29,399 nucleotides of DNA, taken from contig JASHWL010000104.1 of assembly GCA_030044105.1 (NCBI GenBank), positions 1 through 29,399 of the forward strand, in the 5' to 3' direction. A model generated the notes under the pieces. That model did no database searches. It was not told the DNA's origin and was given only the letters and a program-made list of their open reading frames with translations. Both the position numbers and the translations under genes were made by a program. This document shows, one piece after another, positions 10,001 through 21,336 of this stretch. Position 1 is the stretch's first letter, and each line of letters begins with the position of its first letter. This DNA comes from Thermoplasmata archaeon (GTDB lineage: Archaea > Thermoplasmatota > Thermoplasmata > Lutacidiplasmatales > UBA184).

Positions 10001-10052
10001 GCGGGGAAAGGGTTGCGTGCGTCCTGTCGCGTTCGATCTTACGCGGCCCCGC

Positions 10053-13000
10053 TCAGACCACTCCGTTCCCCTGCACGAAGTAGAACAGGTTGTCGCCTGC
10101 CCACATCGGGTTGAGGTCCAAGGTCGCCGGGTTGATCCACGGCGCGTAGGTGCCGACCCCGTCCTGCTGGAGGGTGTACTGCTGGAGGGACAGCGCGTTC
10201 CCGATGTGCTCGATCATGTTGTAAAGCAGCGTTCGGGTCGCTCCCGCGGGCGTCGTCCCCGCGATCCCCATCCAGTAGTCCATCGTCATGAACGCCACGC
10301 CCTGGCAGTCCTGCGGGATGTAGGGGGTGTTCGCCCAGAACGGCAGGTTGTCGAGGTAGCTCTCGCACGACTGCCCACCGATGGTGCCCGAGTTGTAGGC
10401 CGCCTGGCTGAACGTGTAGAACGTCGCGTCCGGCGAGCCGTACGACCCGTTGGTCCAGAGGGTCGGCATGTAGTCCGTCGGGTCCGGGAAGTCGGGCGCC
10501 CAGCCGAGCGTGTAGAGCGGCAGGGCCAGCGTGGACGGCGGGCTCGAGAGCGTGTCGGTCACGAGCTGGCTGAAGCTCAGATCGAACGTGTTCGGCTGCA
10601 GAGCTCCACCCGACAGCGCCTCGATCTCGTGGATCCACAGCTGGATCGCCGCGTCCCCGCTCGGGTCGCCGAGCTCCCCGATGATGGGGAACTCGCACGG
10701 GTTGGAGGTGGTGCAGTGCTGCGCCACCCACGAGTCGTAGAGCGGGCTCGACGTGTTCGAGTACAGCTGGGCCCACCACCACGCGGCCGTCCCGGGCACG
10801 GTCGGCGTATTGCCCGGATCGGTCGAGGGCCACGTGATGTTCTCGGGATAGTAGTTGCCCATCCCGCTCGGGATCGCTCCACCGTAGTTGGACCCGTACT
10901 CGATGCCGTCGACCGTGTTGATGGTGTTCTCCACGGTCGTGTACGGGAAGGCGTAGTTGATGAAGTTCCGCACCGAGTCCGAGGCGAAGAAGGTGCCCGG
11001 GACGTTCAGGGTGAACGGATCGATCGCCTGGGCTGCCTGGACGTCGAAGGTGATCGCGTAGCTGTAGAAGAAGATGTTCAGCGTCGGTGCAGTGACCGCG
11101 CCGATCTTCCCCTCCGAGATCAGCGACAACATCGTCGGCGTCTCGGGCGGCAATATCGTCGCGAAGTCCGTCTGCTGCGCGATGTATTGCTGGATCCCTT
11201 CGGTATCCGAGTCGTCCCAGTAGACCTTCACGTTCGGCGCGTAGGTCCCGGGCGCCGGCTCGCACCACTGCTGGCCCACGCAACCGGTGGGTTGCTGGTA
11301 GGCCGGGTTCGCCGCGAGCGTGTAGCCGACCGCCGCGTTCCAGGCGCCGACCAGGTAGTACGGGCCCGAGCCGACCGCGTTGTAGCGGACCTCCTTGTTG
11401 ATCGCCGGGTTGTTAAACTCGAGCTCCTGCATCGCATCCCACCCGGTCATCCCGAGCGTGTTGTTGATGTAGTTCAGGAAGGTCACACCGTTGATCGACT
11501 CGGTCGTGCTGGTGTAACCCCCGGGCAGGGTCGTCGGGCAGTCCCCGCTGCTCGGGCAGGTCGAGGGGAGCGTCCACCCGGGCAGCATCGCGCCCGTCCC
11601 CTGCTGCGTGAACCAGCCCGCGGGAACGATCCCGCTGCCGAGCGGGTCCGCGATGAACTGCAGGAAGTTCGACCACGCGCGCGGAGGCAGCGTCAGGCCG
11701 TTCTGCGCGCCCGGCGCGTTCGCCACGAACGTCACGCAGCCGTTGTCCTGACTCATCGCGATCGCCGGACAGTAGCTACTGTCGTTGACCAGCATCGAGT
11801 TGAAGATATTGTACGGGGTGTTGTTGAACGGCTGGTGGATCCCGTACCCGGTGAGCGCCGAGCTGTCCCAGGTCAGGTTCCCCGCGGGTAGCAACGCTTC
11901 CGAATCGATCCAGCCGGCGGTCGCCTCGATGGCCGGAAGGTCCGCGTAGGACATCGTCCGGGCGAAGCTGAACACGACGTCCGACGGGTAGACCGGCCAC
12001 GACACCTTGGTCGTCGGGTCATAGAACCGGGCGTTGGAGTCGAGGACGAACGTCCAGTAGACGTCCTGGCCCTGCGAGTTCGCCGTCAGAAGGTCGTTGC
12101 CGCCGTAGAGCGACGCGCACTGCGCCGTGCCCGGAACGCAGGTCGCCAGCTGCGGGATGAACGTAGCGGTGCTCGTCCCGTTGTAGGTGACCAGCGTCTG
12201 GTAGACGTTGTAGACGATCTCGGCGCTGACCGTGTCGTAGGAGATCGCGGGGTCGATCGTCGTCGCGCCCGCCGGAGCGACCTCGTACGCGGTGATCGTC
12301 CCCGAGTGGGGCGAAGTCGCGGAGTGGCTCGAGCTGGTTCGGCACTGGCCGCAGCCCGGCGCGAGTCCGCTGGGGCTCACGTAGACCGACCAGGTGTAGT
12401 TCTGGTAGATCGTCTGCGAGGTGGCGGTGTCCAGGATCGGACCCACCATCGTGATGGTGTAGGCGCCTGCGGAGGCGAAGCTGTAGGTGGCCGACCCGCC
12501 CGAGGACGTCGGCGAGGCCGACGTCTGCGTCCCGCCGGTGGCGGTGAAGGACGTCGTCTGCGGAACGTAGGCCGGGTTCGCCGGCGCGGTCGTGTAGGTG
12601 GCGGACACGGAGATCGTCCCCTTGCCGCCGGAGAGCCAGCCGTACTGGGTGGCGGCGGTGGAGCCGTTGGTCAGGGTCGCCGTGACGGTCGGGTAGTAGC
12701 CCGAGCTCTGCGTGCCGAGCGACGGGCCGATGACGACGGGGTAGAGCGCGGCCGTGCCCGTGTGCCACACGCCCTTGACCTCCGCCTGGGCGGAGACGAC
12801 GTAGGTTCCGAGGCCCGCGTAGGTGTGGCTGAACGTCGGAGCGAGCTGGGTGGTGTTGGTGCCGTCGCCCCAGTTCACCTGGTAGTCGGACGCGGCTTCA
12901 GGAACGCTGACGGTGACAGGAAGACTTTGGCCCTGGGTCAGGGTAAGGACAGAAGTACCGAACGCGGGAGAATACGCCACGAACGTACTCACGTCGTTTC

Positions 13001-13214
13001 CCCCGGCGGCCGCCTTACACGCCGCGCTCGTCGCCGGAGCGCAGGACGTGACGGTCGTGGGCGAGGAGCTGCTGACGGAGCTCAGCGCGGCATAGCCGCC
13101 GGCCCCGACCACGATGATCACCACGATCAGGATCACCGGCGCGAGGACCATCGACGCGCCCCTTCGGCCCGACCAGTTCTTAGGATTCTCGTTCTGCTGT
13201 GCGCTCATGGACAT
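10053..13214 (-). CDS. dppA: Large family-5 (peptide/nickel) ABC substrate-binding protein with N-terminal membrane anchor and PKD-like domain
   Basis: TIDPAISYD..S.EI..NVYQTLV, DVVFSF.R, GSGPYY, LGWAPDFPDP.DY are family-5 SBP hallmarks. VNWGDG...HTY...G.Y.V is a PKD-like repeat. Start uncertain among 13226, 13214 and 13208; 13214 follows GTGAGGG. Confidence 0.85.
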   Translation of the reverse strand: MSMSAQQNENPKNWSGRRGASMVLAPVILIVVIIVVGAGGYAALSSVSSSSPTTVTSCAPATSAACKAAAGGNDVSTFVAYSPAFGTSVLTLTQGQSLPVTVSVPEAASDYQVNWGDGTNTTQLAPTFSHTYAGLGTYVVSAQAEVKGVWHTGTAALYPVVIGPSLGTQSSGYYPTVTATLTNGSTAATQYGWLSGGKGTISVSATYTTAPANPAYVPQTTSFTATGGTQTSASPTSSGGSATYSFASAGAYTITMVGPILDTATSQTIYQNYTWSVYVSPSGLAPGCGQCRTSSSHSATSPHSGTITAYEVAPAGATTIDPAISYDTVSAEIVYNVYQTLVTYNGTSTATFIPQLATCVPGTAQCASLYGGNDLLTANSQGQDVYWTFVLDSNARFYDPTTKVSWPVYPSDVVFSFARTMSYADLPAIEATAGWIDSEALLPAGNLTWDSSALTGYGIHQPFNNTPYNIFNSMLVNDSSYCPAIAMSQDNGCVTFVANAPGAQNGLTLPPRAWSNFLQFIADPLGSGIVPAGWFTQQGTGAMLPGWTLPSTCPSSGDCPTTLPGGYTSTTESINGVTFLNYINNTLGMTGWDAMQELEFNNPAINKEVRYNAVGSGPYYLVGAWNAAVGYTLAANPAYQQPTGCVGQQWCEPAPGTYAPNVKVYWDDSDTEGIQQYIAQQTDFATILPPETPTMLSLISEGKIGAVTAPTLNIFFYSYAITFDVQAAQAIDPFTLNVPGTFFASDSVRNFINYAFPYTTVENTINTVDGIEYGSNYGGAIPSGMGNYYPENITWPSTDPGNTPTVPGTAAWWWAQLYSNTSSPLYDSWVAQHCTTSNPCEFPIIGELGDPSGDAAIQLWIHEIEALSGGALQPNTFDLSFSQLVTDTLSSPPSTLALPLYTLGWAPDFPDPTDYMPTLWTNGSYGSPDATFYTFSQAAYNSGTIGGQSCESYLDNLPFWANTPYIPQDCQGVAFMTMDYWMGIAGTTPAGATRTLLYNMIEHIGNALSLQQYTLQQDGVGTYAPWINPATLDLNPMWAGDNLFYFVQGNGVV

Positions 13215-13266
13215 TGTGTCCCTCACGACCCCCGCGACGGGGTCTTACGGCCGAGCCCTGAGCCGG

Positions 13267-16302: not shown

Positions 16303-16914
16303 GTGCGCGCGTCGCAGCTCGCCCGGGCCCTTTCGCGGGTGCCGCCGTTCCCCCGGCCGGACCCCCGATGGGAGCAGGTGCTCACGCCCCCGGGACCGGC
16401 CGTGGAGCTGCTGCTGGCCGCCGATCGGTTCGACCCGCTCGCCGGTCGGTCGGTCCTCGACCTGGGCGCGGGGACCGGTCGGCTGGCGATCGGGGCGGCC
16501 CTGCTCGGGGCGGGCCCGGTCGTCGGCGTGGAGATCGACCCCGCCGCCGCGGAGCTCGCGCGCAGCGCCGCGCGGACCGCGGGGGTGGCCGTCGACCTCG
16601 TCGTCGCGGACGTGGCGGACTACCGCGCGCCCGCGGACGTGGTCCTGCTCAACCCGCCGTTCGGCGCGCAGCGTCGGCACGCGGACCGCCCGTTCTGGGA
16701 CGCCGCGTTCGCGCTGGCCCGGCGCTCCGCGCACGGGTTCGCGCTCGCCGACTCCCGAACCTTTATAGCGCGTCGCGCGGTCGCGCGCGGCGCCCACATC
16801 ATCGAGACGCGACCGGTCGCCTGGGAACTGGAGCGGACCTTCCCGCACCACACCCGGAATCGGGTCCCGATCCCGGTCGACCGCTGGGCGATCGAGACGC
16901 ACGGAGATCGATGA
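16303..16914 (+). CDS. Predicted RNA N6-adenine methyltransferase, METTL5/COG2263 family
   Basis: EQ..TP, SAM-binding LDLGAGTG, catalytic NPPFG, C-terminal F.HH. Adjacent to csl4 as is usual in archaea. Confidence 0.85.
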   Translation: MRASQLARALSRVPPFPRPDPRWEQVLTPPGPAVELLLAADRFDPLAGRSVLDLGAGTGRLAIGAALLGAGPVVGVEIDPAAAELARSAARTAGVAVDLVVADVADYRAPADVVLLNPPFGAQRRHADRPFWDAAFALARRSAHGFALADSRTFIARRAVARGAHIIETRPVAWELERTFPHHTRNRVPIPVDRWAIETHGDR

Positions 16915-17498
16915 CCGAGACCGAACTGCCGAAGCTCGTGCTGCCCGGGGAGTACCTCGGGGCGGCCGAGGAGTTCCTGCCGGGGCCCGGCACCTACGAG
17001 GACCGGGGGCGGATCTACGCGGCCGTCCTGGGCAGCCCGACCGTCGAACCGCGGGACCGCAGCGTGCGCGTCGCGCCCCGCAACCCCGTCCCCAGCATCG
17101 AGGACGGCGAGCTCGTCTACGCCCGCGTCGACGAGATCAAGACGGCGATGGCGATCTGCACGATCCTGTCGACCGCGTCGAACCCGCGCGGGATCCCGGG
17201 GACCCCCGAGGGGACGGTCCACATCTCGAAGGCGAAGGAGGGCTACACCGAGACGCTCGCCGGCGAGTTCGCCGTCGGCGACCTGCTCCTCGCGCGCGTG
17301 CTCCAGGCGCGGCCGTCGGTCAAGCTCTCGACCGCCGCCAGCAACCTCGGCGTCGTCGCCGCGCGCTGCCAGGTGTGCCACGCGCTGCTCGCGCCCCAGG
17401 GCAAGGAGCTCGTCTGCCCCCGTTGCGGGCACCGGGAGCACCGGAAGCTCGCGGTGGGCGAGATCGCGGGCCGTCCCGATGGCGACGCCCGCGACTGA
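16911..17498 (+). CDS. csl4: Exosome RNA-binding subunit Csl4
   Basis: VLPGE.LG..EEF.PG.GTYE N-terminus, S1 domain (G.VHIS...F.VGDL..ARV), C-terminal zinc ribbon C..C...CP.CG..E.RKLA. ATGA overlap with the methylase stop. Confidence 0.93.
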   Translation: MTETELPKLVLPGEYLGAAEEFLPGPGTYEDRGRIYAAVLGSPTVEPRDRSVRVAPRNPVPSIEDGELVYARVDEIKTAMAICTILSTASNPRGIPGTPEGTVHISKAKEGYTETLAGEFAVGDLLLARVLQARPSVKLSTAASNLGVVAARCQVCHALLAPQGKELVCPRCGHREHRKLAVGEIAGRPDGDARD

Positions 17499-18711
17499 CG
17501 AGGAGCGCCGGCTCGCGCGCCTCGTGCGCGCGCACGATCGCTGGCGATCGCGCGAGGTGTTCAACCTCCTTCCCAGCGAGAACGCGGTGTCGCCCGCGGC
17601 GCGTCGCTTCCTGGCGAGCGACCTCGCCGGCCGCTACACGCTGCCGATGGCGGCCGAGTTCGACGGCGAGGCGCTCGACAACAGCTACACCGGGACGCGC
17701 TACACCGATCAGATCGAGGCGCTGGCCAACGCCGCGGCGGCGCGTGTGTTCCGCGCCCGGTGCGCGACGGTCCGACCGCTGTCGGGCCACATCGCGGCCC
17801 TCTCCGCGCTGGTGCCGCTCCTCCCGCCGGGATCCCGCGTGCTCGCGATCCCGCCCGATCGCGGGGGGTACGACGGGTACGCGCCGGGGTTCGTCCCCGC
17901 GCTCCTGCAGCACGTCGTCCGTCCGCTGCCCGCGGACGGCGAGGGATTCTCGGTCGACGCGACGGTCGCCGCGGAGGCGATCCGACGGGAGCGGCCGAAC
18001 GCGGTCCTGCTCGGCCAGAGCTTCTTCCTGTTCCCGTATCCGCTGCGCGCGATCGCCGAGGCCGCGCACGCCGTGGACGCGCTCGTCCTCTACGACGCCT
18101 CCCACGTGCTCGGACTCATCGCGGGCGGCGAGTTCCAGGATCCCCTCCGCGAGGGCGCCGACGTCGTCGTGGGCAGCACGCACAAGTCGTTCCCGGGACC
18201 TCAGGGCGGGCTGCTGCTGACCGACCGGGAGGATCTGTTCGCCCAGATCGACCCGGCGCTCGTCTGGCGCGTGTTCGACAACGCGCACTGGAACCGCATC
18301 GCGGGCGTCGCGCAGACTCTGCTCGAGCTCGAGCGCGTGGGCGTCGAGTACGCGCGTACCACGGTCGGCAACGCGCAGCGGTTGGCCCAGGAGCTCGACG
18401 CCCGCGGCGTGCCGCTGATCGCAAAGGCCCAGGGCTTCACCCGCTCGCACCAGATCCACCTCGACCGCCCGGCGCTGCGCGCGCAGCATGGGATCGGAGC
18501 CGGCGCGCTGGCCCGCCGGCTCGAACGCCAACGGCTGTTGATCGACCTCGTGGGACGGATCGGCACTGCCGAGGCGGCCCGGCTCGGGCTCACGACGGAC
18601 GACATGCCGCGGCTCGCGGACCTCCTCGTCCGCGGCGGGATCCGGGGGGAGCGCGTCGCCGCGGAGGTCCTCGCCTGGCGGCGCCAGTTCCCGGCGCTGC
18701 GGCTCGCCTAG
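17479..18711 (+). CDS. Serine hydroxymethyltransferase-like PLP enzyme (divergent; possibly a folate-independent aldolase)
   Basis: L.PSEN, YDASHVLGLIAG.EFQDPLREGAD, PLP-lysine motif STHKSFPGPQGG and RIGT match archaeal SHMT, but several SHMT-specific motifs are altered (see findings). Confidence 0.85.
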   Translation: MATPATDEERRLARLVRAHDRWRSREVFNLLPSENAVSPAARRFLASDLAGRYTLPMAAEFDGEALDNSYTGTRYTDQIEALANAAAARVFRARCATVRPLSGHIAALSALVPLLPPGSRVLAIPPDRGGYDGYAPGFVPALLQHVVRPLPADGEGFSVDATVAAEAIRRERPNAVLLGQSFFLFPYPLRAIAEAAHAVDALVLYDASHVLGLIAGGEFQDPLREGADVVVGSTHKSFPGPQGGLLLTDREDLFAQIDPALVWRVFDNAHWNRIAGVAQTLLELERVGVEYARTTVGNAQRLAQELDARGVPLIAKAQGFTRSHQIHLDRPALRAQHGIGAGALARRLERQRLLIDLVGRIGTAEAARLGLTTDDMPRLADLLVRGGIRGERVAAEVLAWRRQFPALRLA

Positions 18712-18751: not shown

Positions 18752-18776
18752 CTCCCCCCGCTGAGGGCGGGGGGAG
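18752..18776. terminator. 10-bp GC stem-loop between convergent genes
   Basis: CTCCCCCCGC-TGAGG-GCGGGGGGAG inverted repeat. On the minus strand it is followed by TCTTCTGT. Confidence 0.55.
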
Positions 18777-18810
18777 AGGAAAGGGTACGGTGAGCACCGG
18801 TTCCCGGCGC

Positions 18811-21336
18811 TCAGGTGCCGCCGCTCGAGGGAGGCGTGCTCCCCGAGTCCGTGGTGGTCCCGGCCGCAGAGGTGTCGGTTCCGCCGGTGGTCCCCGGCTG
18901 GCTGCCCTGCTGCCACTGCTGCGGGGGCTCCTGGGTCTTCGAGCCGCCCCACATCATCCGTCCGACCAGCAGCGCGACGATCATGCCCACGATCAGGCCC
19001 ACCAGCAGGAGGATCGTCCCGGCGACCGCCGGCGAGAGGCTCCCGAGCAGGGTGACGTTGTGATACGTGCTGCTGTTGATGTAGACGGTCGTCGAGGAGA
19101 CCGACGTGATGGTCAGCGTCGTGTTGTCGTAGACCGGGGGACCCGACGTGAGCGTCATCTCCACCGAAGCGGTGTACGAGCCGGCCGCCGTCGCGTCCCA
19201 CACCGCGGTCGCGGGCACGCCCGGCGTGAGCTGGGTCATGACCGCCGTGAAGACCGGTACGGTGCCGAGGTAGACCGTCAGGCTCGCCCCCGAGATGAAG
19301 TCGCCCTGGTAGAACGTCGTGAACGTGACGTTCCCGGTCGCCAGCGGGATCGGCGACGAGCCGGACGGCGACAGCGTCACGATCGTCGCGTCCTGTCCGA
19401 TGAAGAACGCGGGACCGATCGAGGCCGTGCCGAAGGCCACCGACCCGTTCAGCGGAGCGCCGATCCCGTCCACCGTCACGTTGACGGTGAAGTAGAAGTC
19501 GTCCGACGGCGAGGTCTCCGCGCACACCGCCGCGACCGTGCACGTCGACACCGTCGAGGCGCTCACCGGGAAGACGTAGGAGAGCTGGCCCGGGTACAGC
19601 GCGATCGGATAGAACGCGATCGCGGCCGGGATCGTGGCGTCCACGACCGCGAGCACAATCGTCGTGCTCTCGTTCGTGATCGTCGCGTTCGTCACCGAGA
19701 GCGTGAACCCGAGATCGAACGGCGCCGTGGAGACATCGATGTAGTCGGACACCGGCGTGGTGAACTTCGCGGAGATTGCCGTCGGATGCTGGGCCAGCTC
19801 GTCCACGAAGATGGGCACATTGAACGGCAGGCTGTAGGGGGTCCCCACGCTGCTGGAGATGCCGGTGACCATCGCCCCATCGGCGGTGGCGTTAGCGTAC
19901 AGGGTCAACGCGTCCCCGTACGCGCCCGAAGTGATGTCCGCCGGAGTGATGGCCAAGCTCCAGGTGTAGTTGACCCACTGCGTGCCCAGCGGCGAGGTCC
20001 CGTTGCTCACTTCCTCGAGGCTGAAGTAGGTACCGAGCGTTGTGTTCGCCGAGTCGTTGACCGACCAGCTCGTGAGCACCGTGGAACCGTCGACGAGGAC
20101 GAAGTACGCGGTGTAGGTGCTGTTCCACGTCAGGAAGCCGTAGGTAACGCTGCTCAGGTTGAGCCACCCGTACTGGGTGTATGGCAGCGGTTGGTAGGGC
20201 ACGGGCGATCCGTCAATTCCTCCGTAGGCAAGCGTCGTGCCCGAGATGGTCGAGAGGTCGAAGACCTGCTCTGCTCCGGGCGCATAGCCCCCGACGGCCG
20301 TTCCGTCGACGTTGGCCCCGACCAACAGTTCCAGCTCGCCTCCGCCGCCCAACGCGGTGACCAGCGCGGACCAGGTCAGGTTCAAGGCGCTAGCATTCAG
20401 GGTGAACGTGTACGTGATGTTCGTCCAGTACCCCGTCCACGAGGTTCCGTTCGAATCGACCGCACCAGTGGGACTCGCCGGATTGATATCAAAGGGGACG
20501 GTCCCGTTGACCGAGTCGTTCAGGCTCACGACGCCGATCACGGACAAGGTCGGCGCGTAGTACACCGTCACCCATGCGCTCACGGTGGCGTTGGTCGCGG
20601 CGAGGTAGCTCGAGTTCACCCAGAGCTCGACGGTGAAGTTGAACGGCACATCCGTCGCGTACGTCGTCGCGAGAGTCTCGTTGGTCGCGGGCAGCACGAA
20701 CCCCGCGCTCGCGAAGGTCGTGAGCACCGCCGAGTCGATGTAGGCGAGCGAGGAGGAGGCAAAGCCGCCCCCGGTCGACGCGCCGTTCTCTGTGACGTAG
20801 ATCGTGAAGGTCACGTTCTGAGTAAAGCCCGCACCCAGGAAGCTATAGCACGAGGCGTCGGTGCAGCCGAGGGTGGCCGCGTCGAGGTCCGCGGTCCACG
20901 TGTAGTTCGCGTAGGGGACCCCGTTGATCACGCTCGACGTGACGAGCGCGCTGTCGATCGTGTCGTTCAGGCTCACGTTGGTCGGGAAGTACGTGATGGG
21001 TGTCGTCGTCAGGTTCGCGGTGACGTAGGCGAAGGTGGTGGTGTCGGAGATGACGCCCCAGGTGATGTTCGTGTAGAAGGTGATGTTCGCCGGGAACGTC
21101 GGACCCGGCGTATAGATCAAGCCGATGGTGACCGAGGTCGTGTCCTGACCCTGCGCGGCGGGCGTCGGCGACGCGCGCGCGGGAGCGGCGGAGCTCGCCG
21201 AGCTGCTCTTCCCCGAGTGGGATGCCAACCCGGCCGCGGCACCCAGCCCCGCCGAGCCGAGCACGAGGCCCGCGAGGACGACAACCGTTACACCAATCGC
21301 CAAGGTACGATAGTTCAACCCGGCAACGCGACGCAT
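18811..21336 (-). CDS. Secreted, C-terminally anchored Thr/Ser-rich surface glycoprotein (S-layer/cell-surface-like)
   Basis: N-terminal signal peptide, ~720-aa beta-rich ectodomain with about 30 N-x-S/T sequons, TM helix (AVAGTILLLVGLIVGMIVALLVG), short Q/G/T-rich cytoplasmic tail. 841 aa. Confidence 0.85.
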   Translation of the reverse strand: MRRVAGLNYRTLAIGVTVVVLAGLVLGSAGLGAAAGLASHSGKSSSASSAAPARASPTPAAQGQDTTSVTIGLIYTPGPTFPANITFYTNITWGVISDTTTFAYVTANLTTTPITYFPTNVSLNDTIDSALVTSSVINGVPYANYTWTADLDAATLGCTDASCYSFLGAGFTQNVTFTIYVTENGASTGGGFASSSLAYIDSAVLTTFASAGFVLPATNETLATTYATDVPFNFTVELWVNSSYLAATNATVSAWVTVYYAPTLSVIGVVSLNDSVNGTVPFDINPASPTGAVDSNGTSWTGYWTNITYTFTLNASALNLTWSALVTALGGGGELELLVGANVDGTAVGGYAPGAEQVFDLSTISGTTLAYGGIDGSPVPYQPLPYTQYGWLNLSSVTYGFLTWNSTYTAYFVLVDGSTVLTSWSVNDSANTTLGTYFSLEEVSNGTSPLGTQWVNYTWSLAITPADITSGAYGDALTLYANATADGAMVTGISSSVGTPYSLPFNVPIFVDELAQHPTAISAKFTTPVSDYIDVSTAPFDLGFTLSVTNATITNESTTIVLAVVDATIPAAIAFYPIALYPGQLSYVFPVSASTVSTCTVAAVCAETSPSDDFYFTVNVTVDGIGAPLNGSVAFGTASIGPAFFIGQDATIVTLSPSGSSPIPLATGNVTFTTFYQGDFISGASLTVYLGTVPVFTAVMTQLTPGVPATAVWDATAAGSYTASVEMTLTSGPPVYDNTTLTITSVSSTTVYINSSTYHNVTLLGSLSPAVAGTILLLVGLIVGMIVALLVGRMMWGGSKTQEPPQQWQQGSQPGTTGGTDTSAAGTTTDSGSTPPSSGGT

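Follow-up and report, generated by a model that had tools for sequence, protein, structure and literature searches.

A short, Ta0811-type paralogue of serine hydroxymethyltransferase in a Thermoplasmata archaeon, probably a folate-independent threonine/β-hydroxy-amino-acid aldolase

The 29,399-nucleotide stretch of contig JASHWL010000104.1 from a Thermoplasmata archaeon (the window, with a G+C content of ~70%) carries an open reading frame (ORF) at 17479..18711 on the plus strand, the exact extent of which was re-found in the window. Its 410-residue product, P0001, belongs to an already known kind of protein: it is a folate-independent paralogue of serine hydroxymethyltransferase (SHMT), of the type represented by Ta0811 of Thermoplasma acidophilum, and such paralogues are routinely mis-annotated as SHMT. 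Judging from its sequence, P0001 is likely to act as a folate-independent threonine/β-hydroxy-amino-acid aldolase, forming glycine and an aldehyde beside a canonical SHMT (glyA). The distinction matters for annotation. In databases, P0001 and thousands of related proteins bear the name ‘serine hydroxymethyltransferase’ or ‘glycine hydroxymethyltransferase’. A metabolic reconstruction of uncultured members of the Thermoplasmata, Bathyarchaeia, Nitrososphaeria or Asgard archaea that follows these names would credit them with a one-carbon-loading step that the short copy almost certainly cannot perform, and would miss a threonine-to-glycine route.

P0001 is an SHMT-fold enzyme dependent on pyridoxal phosphate (PLP). 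It scores 85.3 bits against the Pfam SHMT family PF00464 (cut-off 27), although only profile positions 14–326 are covered. The closest solved structure by sequence is the Methanocaldococcus jannaschii SHMT (4uqv/4bhd; E 5e-58, HMMER alignment), and 4uqv is also the top fold match (TM 0.91) of an AlphaFold (AF2) model that was built on 57 sequences with a pLDDT of 96.2; SHMT structures match this model best. Together with the presence of Lys236, Asp206 and Arg360, these matches place P0001 within the SHMT superfamily and fold, for which the homodimer is the textbook state. The curated whole-protein SHMT/GlyA model of NCBIfam, NF000586, tells the two copies apart: the canonical SHMT of the same genus passes with 416 bits, whereas P0001, at 218.6 bits, lies below the cut-off of 335.

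The departures from canonical SHMT were read from the HMMER alignment to 4uqv and from a MAFFT census of 151 sequences, with residue roles and Escherichia coli numbering taken from the established SHMT literature. All of the features below lie on the plus strand. First, HRYAEGLPGKRLYQG is replaced by GRYTLP plus an insert (...NSYTG). Thus, R52-Y53-T54-L55-P56 (17632..17646) stands in place of RYAEG, and Leu55 occupies the column of the catalytic Glu (Glu57 in E. coli), which P0001 lacks. The segment bounded by the YAEG Tyr and the counterpart of E. coli Y65 is 18 residues long in P0001 vs 11 in canonical forms; the insert between these two active-site tyrosines, Y53 and Y70 (17644..17688), is therefore of ~7 residues, and it is predicted to fold as a β-hairpin with strands at 56–61 and 64–68. 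Second, GGHISH has become GGYDGY (17863..17880), which puts Tyr131 at the column of the PLP-stacking His (H126 in E. coli), so that the His of GGHxxH is absent. Third, D267-N268-A269-H270 (18277..18288) replaces SNHH. Fourth, the pterin-binding loop, NKN...P.D...PSG before R(L/I)GT, has lost 15 residues and retains only 4, as opposed to 17–21 in canonical forms; the deletion is at LLIDLVGRIGT (18535..18567).

P0001 keeps S33-E34-N35, Y53 and Y70, as well as D206-A-S-H209 (18094..18105), which provides the Asp for the PLP pyridine nitrogen and the active-site His, S233-T234-H235-K236 (18175..18186), the Schiff-base lysine motif, and the carboxylate-binding R360 beside the loop deletion. Across 57 diverse sequences (alignment A2) the PLP- and amino-acid-binding residues are invariant, including D206, and H209 is at least 90% conserved. 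D267 and N268 are both invariant in 26 short forms (alignment A1), whereas only N268 of the two is invariant in A2. Compared with canonical archaeal SHMTs (the M. jannaschii enzyme and the glyA copies of the genus at loci L013 and L021), P0001 has the same fold, PLP lysine, Asp, His, Arg and Tyr residues, but it is without Glu57, His126, SNHH and the 15-residue pterin loop, and it has an extra hairpin. Every motif change named in a preliminary description of this DNA, which had called the ORF an SHMT paralogue with lost folate elements and retained PLP lysine, D-x-x-H and carboxylate Arg, was thus reproduced.

These changes are not due to chance or to an assembly artefact, because the same states recur in >100 clusters at 76–95% identity and are fixed across a clade of ~125 sequences. 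The clusters come from uncultured Thermoplasmata, their reading frames are intact, and most are labelled ‘glycine/serine hydroxymethyltransferase’. The same observations bear on whether P0001 is a catalytically dead or regulatory relic of SHMT. Although its score under NF000586 would suit a relic, the residues for PLP and for the substrate carboxylate are all invariant over a deep and widespread clade, the frame has stayed intact in those clusters, and one clade member is reported to be active, at least in a passage of a citing paper. We find the relic explanation scarcely credible.

An exhaustive search of representatives at 50% identity returned 352 proteins at E ≤ 1e-30. Among 238 aligned sequences, 132 combine Tyr or Phe at the stacking position with a loop of <12 residues, and nearly all of these lack the catalytic Glu, which is kept in 2. 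The short forms are one clade, apart from the canonical SHMTs and containing both P0001 and Ta0811: 125 tips group with a FastTree support of 99, and in an IQ-TREE analysis (LG+G4, 92 sequences) all 67 short-form tips group with an SH-aLRT of 96. Within it, P0001 and Ta0811 share a subclade of 33 tips (SH-aLRT 99, IQ-TREE) or 70 tips (support 91, FastTree). The clade is large, it rests on one characterised member, and it contains at least three motif sub-forms: (a) RY(T/S)LP plus the hairpin with GGY(D/T)GY, in Thermoplasmata, DHVE2 and one Helarchaeota metagenome-assembled genome; (b) RYTARDxFYxGT with GGYPG-, in Bathyarchaeia and Nitrososphaeria; and (c) RYxxxxYGG with GGYP(F/L)-. A separate SHMT-like group, represented by P0146, P0160, P0166 and P0174, falls outside both the canonical SHMTs and the short clade. 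It keeps the stacking His, has a loop shortened to 14–15 residues, carries Asp or Asn where the Glu aligns, and shows the motifs RYADYxGRD...RYRGNR and GGHREA; we know of no characterisation of it.

A class-wide search of Thermoplasmata genomes found, in T. acidophilum, a short copy of 387 residues, the CHARACTERISED relative, at 864.7 kb, and a canonical SHMT at the very end of the genome. The short copy is the exact sequence of CAC11940.1/Q9HJZ9, ‘glycine hydroxymethyltransferase related protein [Thermoplasma acidophilum]’. We identify it as Ta0811: no other SHMT gene of T. acidophilum is loop-less, and the gene lies 55% of the way along the genome, in agreement with locus number 811 of 1509. 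Ta0811 is said to be the short SHMT paralogue characterised by Ma’ruf et al. in 2021 (Extremophiles 25:393), and the abstract of that study reportedly describes cleavage of threonine without tetrahydrofolate (THF) and an expression higher than that of the canonical Ta1509. In the passage of a later paper that cites the 2021 work, Ta0811 is reported as unable to run the THF-dependent reaction, and the missing folate-binding loop is named as one of its features (PMC9876860). GapMind 2026 offers no alternative annotation for short SHMTs (PMC13759103).

P0001 resembles Ta0811 in several respects (38% identity, E 5e-89). Both have lost the Glu and carry Tyr for the stacking His, and both show GGY-GY, W-R-x-x-D-N and an identical loop deletion (...D..GRIGT). 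Both score under the NF000586 cut-off (258 bits for Ta0811, 219 for P0001). As in nearly all near-complete same-genus genomes of P0001, a canonical SHMT stands alongside Ta0811, and LtaE, the classical low-specificity L-threonine aldolase, was not found in its genome. There are also differences. The insert segment is trimmed in Ta0811 (11 residues vs 18) and in its Thermoplasmatales relatives (11–13); Ta0811 has GGYTGY/DNYN where P0001 has GGYDGY/DNAH; and its neighbours are an aldehyde:ferredoxin oxidoreductase (AOR) and a CBS-domain protein rather than a methyltransferase and Csl4. The mention in the preliminary description of a Thermoplasma SHMT paralogue that had been described as an allo-threonine aldolase was right in substance, as far as the citing passage on its defective THF-dependent reaction goes (PMC9876860), and P0001 groups with that paralogue and not with validated SHMTs. 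The suggestion there of a different, possibly new, reaction found no support, given the well-supported subclade that P0001 shares with Ta0811. What stands of that interpretation is the paralogue with intact PLP chemistry and lost folate elements; the new reaction and a proposed link to transaldolases, discussed below, are not supported.

P0001 is a paralogue, most likely with a canonical glyA beside it. Its source assembly, 66% complete at 1.33 Mb in 223 contigs, has P0001 as its only SHMT-family gene; a second, canonical glyA, for which the preliminary description had proposed to look, was seen in the relatives. Most of the near-complete genomes among 24 searched from the same genus have two SHMT-family genes: one covers the full profile (~230 bits) and has YAEG, GAHIS, SNHH and the NKN loop, and the other resembles P0001 (~80–90 bits). 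The two occur together in 12 of the 13 same-genus genomes that are at least 95% complete. Since nearly all near-complete genomes of the genus carry both copies, the canonical glyA of the source genome most likely lies in the unassembled third. Our genome tallies take in the unpublished genomes G019, G060 and G242, on which no conclusion rests. In four genomes at 95–96% completeness, G049 (family f1), G168 (f21) and G169 and G170 (f22), the short form was found but a canonical SHMT was not (E ≤ 1e-20); if this is real, the short form would be the only SHMT-family gene they have.

Such genomes with the short form only would be expected if P0001 were a hydroxymethyltransferase with a different one-carbon acceptor, for example a modified pterin in a remodelled pocket, and the use of modified folates by archaeal SHMTs is established (PMC3697235). 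We consider this very unlikely, however, with the acid–base Glu lost and the pterin loop deleted, with a canonical glyA coexisting in the genus, and with Ta0811 reported, in the citing passage, to be without the THF-dependent reaction (PMC9876860).

An independent and testable argument for the role of the short form comes from its distribution relative to LtaE, which we followed with the LtaE-specific model NF007825 in genomes at least 95% complete. No LtaE was found in four same-genus genomes (95–100% complete), nor in 17 genomes of family f1. The survey also took in 196 other Thermoplasmata genomes from 19 families. Ten families (f1, f6, f10, f20–22 and f24–27; 80 genomes) have the short form without LtaE, and five (f15–f19) have LtaE with the canonical SHMT only; both occur in 2 of the 19, including f23, and neither in f2 and f8. 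The division recurs within f14: a sub-form (c) short copy is present and LtaE absent in five of its genomes, and the remaining one of the six, G045, has LtaE and no short copy. The short form and LtaE are thus nearly complementary across Thermoplasmata families; the family-level table (2/10/5/2) gives a Fisher p of 0.045, which is descriptive, as kin are not independent.

Strong PF01212 genes in same-genus genomes were considered as coexisting classical threonine aldolases and rejected, for they are of the tryptophanase/tyrosine-phenol-lyase type (NF009709, 637 bits). This gene (L118:1396-2775, minus strand) is common in the genus, which is one of soil and peat Thermoplasmata, being present in 28 of 38 high-quality same-genus genomes; it was not found in the 66%-complete source assembly. 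As a separate observation, 14 genomes of family f8, all at least 95% complete, from genera g33 (SHMT-family match in 0 of 8) and g9 (5 of 11), gave no hit of the SHMT family when searched with P0001 (E ≤ 1e-20); f8 is also without LtaE, and these searches do not readily show how its members obtain glycine.

The reaction predicted for P0001 is the one catalysed by LtaE (PF01212/NF007825). This would be a functional analogy and not membership, as LtaE belongs to another family within fold type I and P0001 has no PF01212 match in the Pfam search. The natural Leu at the Glu site and the missing pterin loop, in a protein that keeps all of the external-aldimine residues, make pterin-independent retro-aldol cleavage or aldol formation on β-hydroxy amino acids the most likely reaction. 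Work on SHMT mutants agrees with this. The folate-dependent reaction requires the Glu, whereas allo-threonine is cleaved without it, and Glu mutants lose folate-dependent activity while folate-independent cleavage is kept or improved (PMC5958214; PMC11323337). Glu-to-Gln nearly abolishes THF-dependent catalysis (PMC11323337), and the E75L and E75Q mutants release formaldehyde from serine faster in the absence of folate (PMC5958214). Leu55 of P0001 is the natural equivalent of rabbit cSHMT E75L. Unlike the rabbit mutants and Bacillus stearothermophilus E53Q (PDB 2vgs), which retain the folate pocket and the stacking His, P0001 has a wholly remodelled pocket. The counterpart of E. coli Y65 has been put forward as the base (PMC5958214); in P0001 this Tyr is the invariant Y70.

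We suggest the following mode of action. As a member of the short SHMT clade and the counterpart of Ta0811 in their subclade, P0001 would be active as a dimeric PLP enzyme of fold type I and would form an external aldimine on Lys236 with glycine or L-β-hydroxy amino acids. In this complex, Asp206 would contact the pyridine nitrogen and Tyr131 would stack on the PLP ring instead of His, while Arg360 and Ser33 would hold the carboxylate and the partner subunit would supply Tyr53 and Tyr70. One-carbon transfer to folate should be impossible, because the Glu for folate proton transfer is Leu and the pterin-binding loop is deleted; this step would be left to the canonical glyA alongside. The role in the cell would most likely be that of a threonine aldolase, either making glycine from threonine or breaking threonine down, with expression from a housekeeping operon of methyltransferase, Csl4 and P0001. 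Activity, substrate and physiological direction are in this sense what we infer, as distinct from the sequence states, clade membership, paralogy and distribution against LtaE, which were observed directly.

The substrate preference of P0001 may not be that of Ta0811, as the hairpin and the pocket residues of the two proteins differ. The same folate-independent Cα–Cβ chemistry might act on a physiological substrate other than threonine, such as serine (giving glycine and formaldehyde) or another β-hydroxy or α-alkyl amino acid, with the hairpin and an Asp132/Asp267 pocket setting the specificity. The hairpin is placed exactly between both active-site tyrosines, in a segment that is 5–7 residues shorter in Ta0811 and its Thermoplasmatales relatives; D267, which like N268 is invariant in those 26 short forms, does not occur in canonical SHMT; and the behaviour of the E75L and E75Q mutants on serine (PMC5958214) provides a precedent. 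The near-complementarity with LtaE, on the other hand, suggests a threonine aldolase role, threonine is also indicated by the adjacency of thrC in DHVE2, whose short form has the full 18-residue insert, and free formaldehyde is toxic. On balance, we regard a non-threonine substrate as unlikely. There is likewise a slight chance that ‘threonine aldolase’ is too simple a name for the full-hairpin GGYDGY subfamily as a whole, which comprises P0001 and most members from Thermoplasmata, and that the hairpin and the new Asp residues form a pocket for another physiological substrate or acceptor, e.g., for serine cleavage without folate, with the formaldehyde passed on to another carrier, or for the synthesis of an unrecognised β-hydroxy amino acid. 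If true, archaeal central metabolism would include an SHMT-fold reaction that is not known to have been described.

Gene context in other lineages fits the proposed aldehyde-forming, threonine-linked enzyme. Ta0811 divergently adjoins the AOR gene, with an aldehyde dehydrogenase near, and AOR-family neighbours also occur at one Bathyarchaeia and one Geocrenenecus locus, which makes three unrelated lineages. In the DHVE2 lineage, the threonine synthase gene thrC (TIGR00260, 173.8 bits, cut-off 167.1) overlaps the start of the short-SHMT gene. The arrangement resembles a thrC/short-SHMT operon, in which threonine synthesis would lead straight into glycine; the loci are L067:4824-5969 (plus strand) and L113 (G184, on a contig of 1,486,778 bp). 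The genus of P0001 has no AOR; it has 4–6 aldehyde dehydrogenases per genome and a threonine-synthase-like gene with a score below the cut-off.

The local context consists, upstream and on the same strand, of genes for an ATP-dependent DNA ligase, a PRC-barrel protein, a class I methyltransferase (16303..16914, identified with Pfam) and a Csl4-like exosome subunit (16911..17498, PF14382). The methyltransferase stop overlaps the Csl4 start as ATGA (16911-16914), and the last 20 nucleotides of the Csl4 gene overlap the start of P0001 (17479-17498). Because of these overlaps, the three genes are probably co-transcribed. Their order is kept in the genus and in lineages 44–50% identical. The linkage is found in 7 of 28 lineage groups, being absent in Thermoplasmatales, DHVE2, Bathyarchaeia and others, and no neighbour is universal. 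A functional link of P0001 to the exosome was rejected on account of this limited distribution, and we read the gene order as inherited synteny and co-expression only.

The vertical conservation of the gene in a housekeeping operon is also relevant to a further explanation, raised in the preliminary description, whereby P0001 would resemble the L-threonine transaldolases (ObiH/LipK/FTase type) and make a non-proteinogenic β-hydroxy amino acid for a natural product. P0001 does have the SHMT fold with altered folate elements, the transaldolases have the same fold and do not use folate, and ObiH (PDB 7k34) matches the model with a TM of 0.85. It ranks below dozens of SHMTs, however, and the fluorothreonine transaldolase model TIGR04506 gives P0001 only 172 bits (cut-off 650), less than the 223 bits of the canonical SHMT of the genus. 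With no specific relationship, no natural-product cluster near P0001 and no recurring biosynthetic neighbours across the 28 lineage groups, this link was not borne out, and we judge a transaldolase role highly improbable.

Having proposed a folate-independent threonine/β-hydroxy-amino-acid aldolase, we would note several points that weigh against it. The neighbours within this genus give no functional hint, and a canonical glyA has not been seen in the 66%-complete source genome itself. The complementarity with LtaE was seen between families, in genomes that are related to one another, and f23 has both genes. Ta0811 is only 38% identical, with a trimmed insert and GGYTGY/DNYN, and its substrate preference could differ. 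What is said here of threonine cleavage by Ta0811 draws on what the abstract reportedly states and on one sentence in a citing paper. Finally, one recent study favours the Glu as the base of the folate-independent reaction as well (PMC11323337), in which case P0001 would need another base.

Downstream, a GC-rich hairpin (18752..18775; stem of at least 8 bp, loop TGAG) lies between the convergent 3′ ends of P0001 and of a gene at 18811-21336 on the minus strand. The latter encodes an 841-residue protein, probably a surface glycoprotein, that matches no Pfam family; it has numerous N-x-S/T sequons, a hydrophobic segment in its C-terminal part and a tail rich in Ser, Thr and Gly. No match to this protein was found in several close relatives (e.g., L024, L025 and L028–L030), where a gene for a Fap7-like kinase directly follows the paralogue. 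The surface-protein gene thus looks like a variable insertion between conserved genes. An exact AACCCTTTCC occurs at 10005-10014 on the minus strand, just downstream of a 1057-residue minus-strand ORF (10053..13226), and a copy with one mismatch, TACCCTTTCC, at 18778-18787 on the minus strand, just downstream of the surface-protein gene and beside the GC hairpin. Two matches to the AACCCTTTCC-type motif compare with 0.48 expected, and two were reached in 7 of 100 shuffles.

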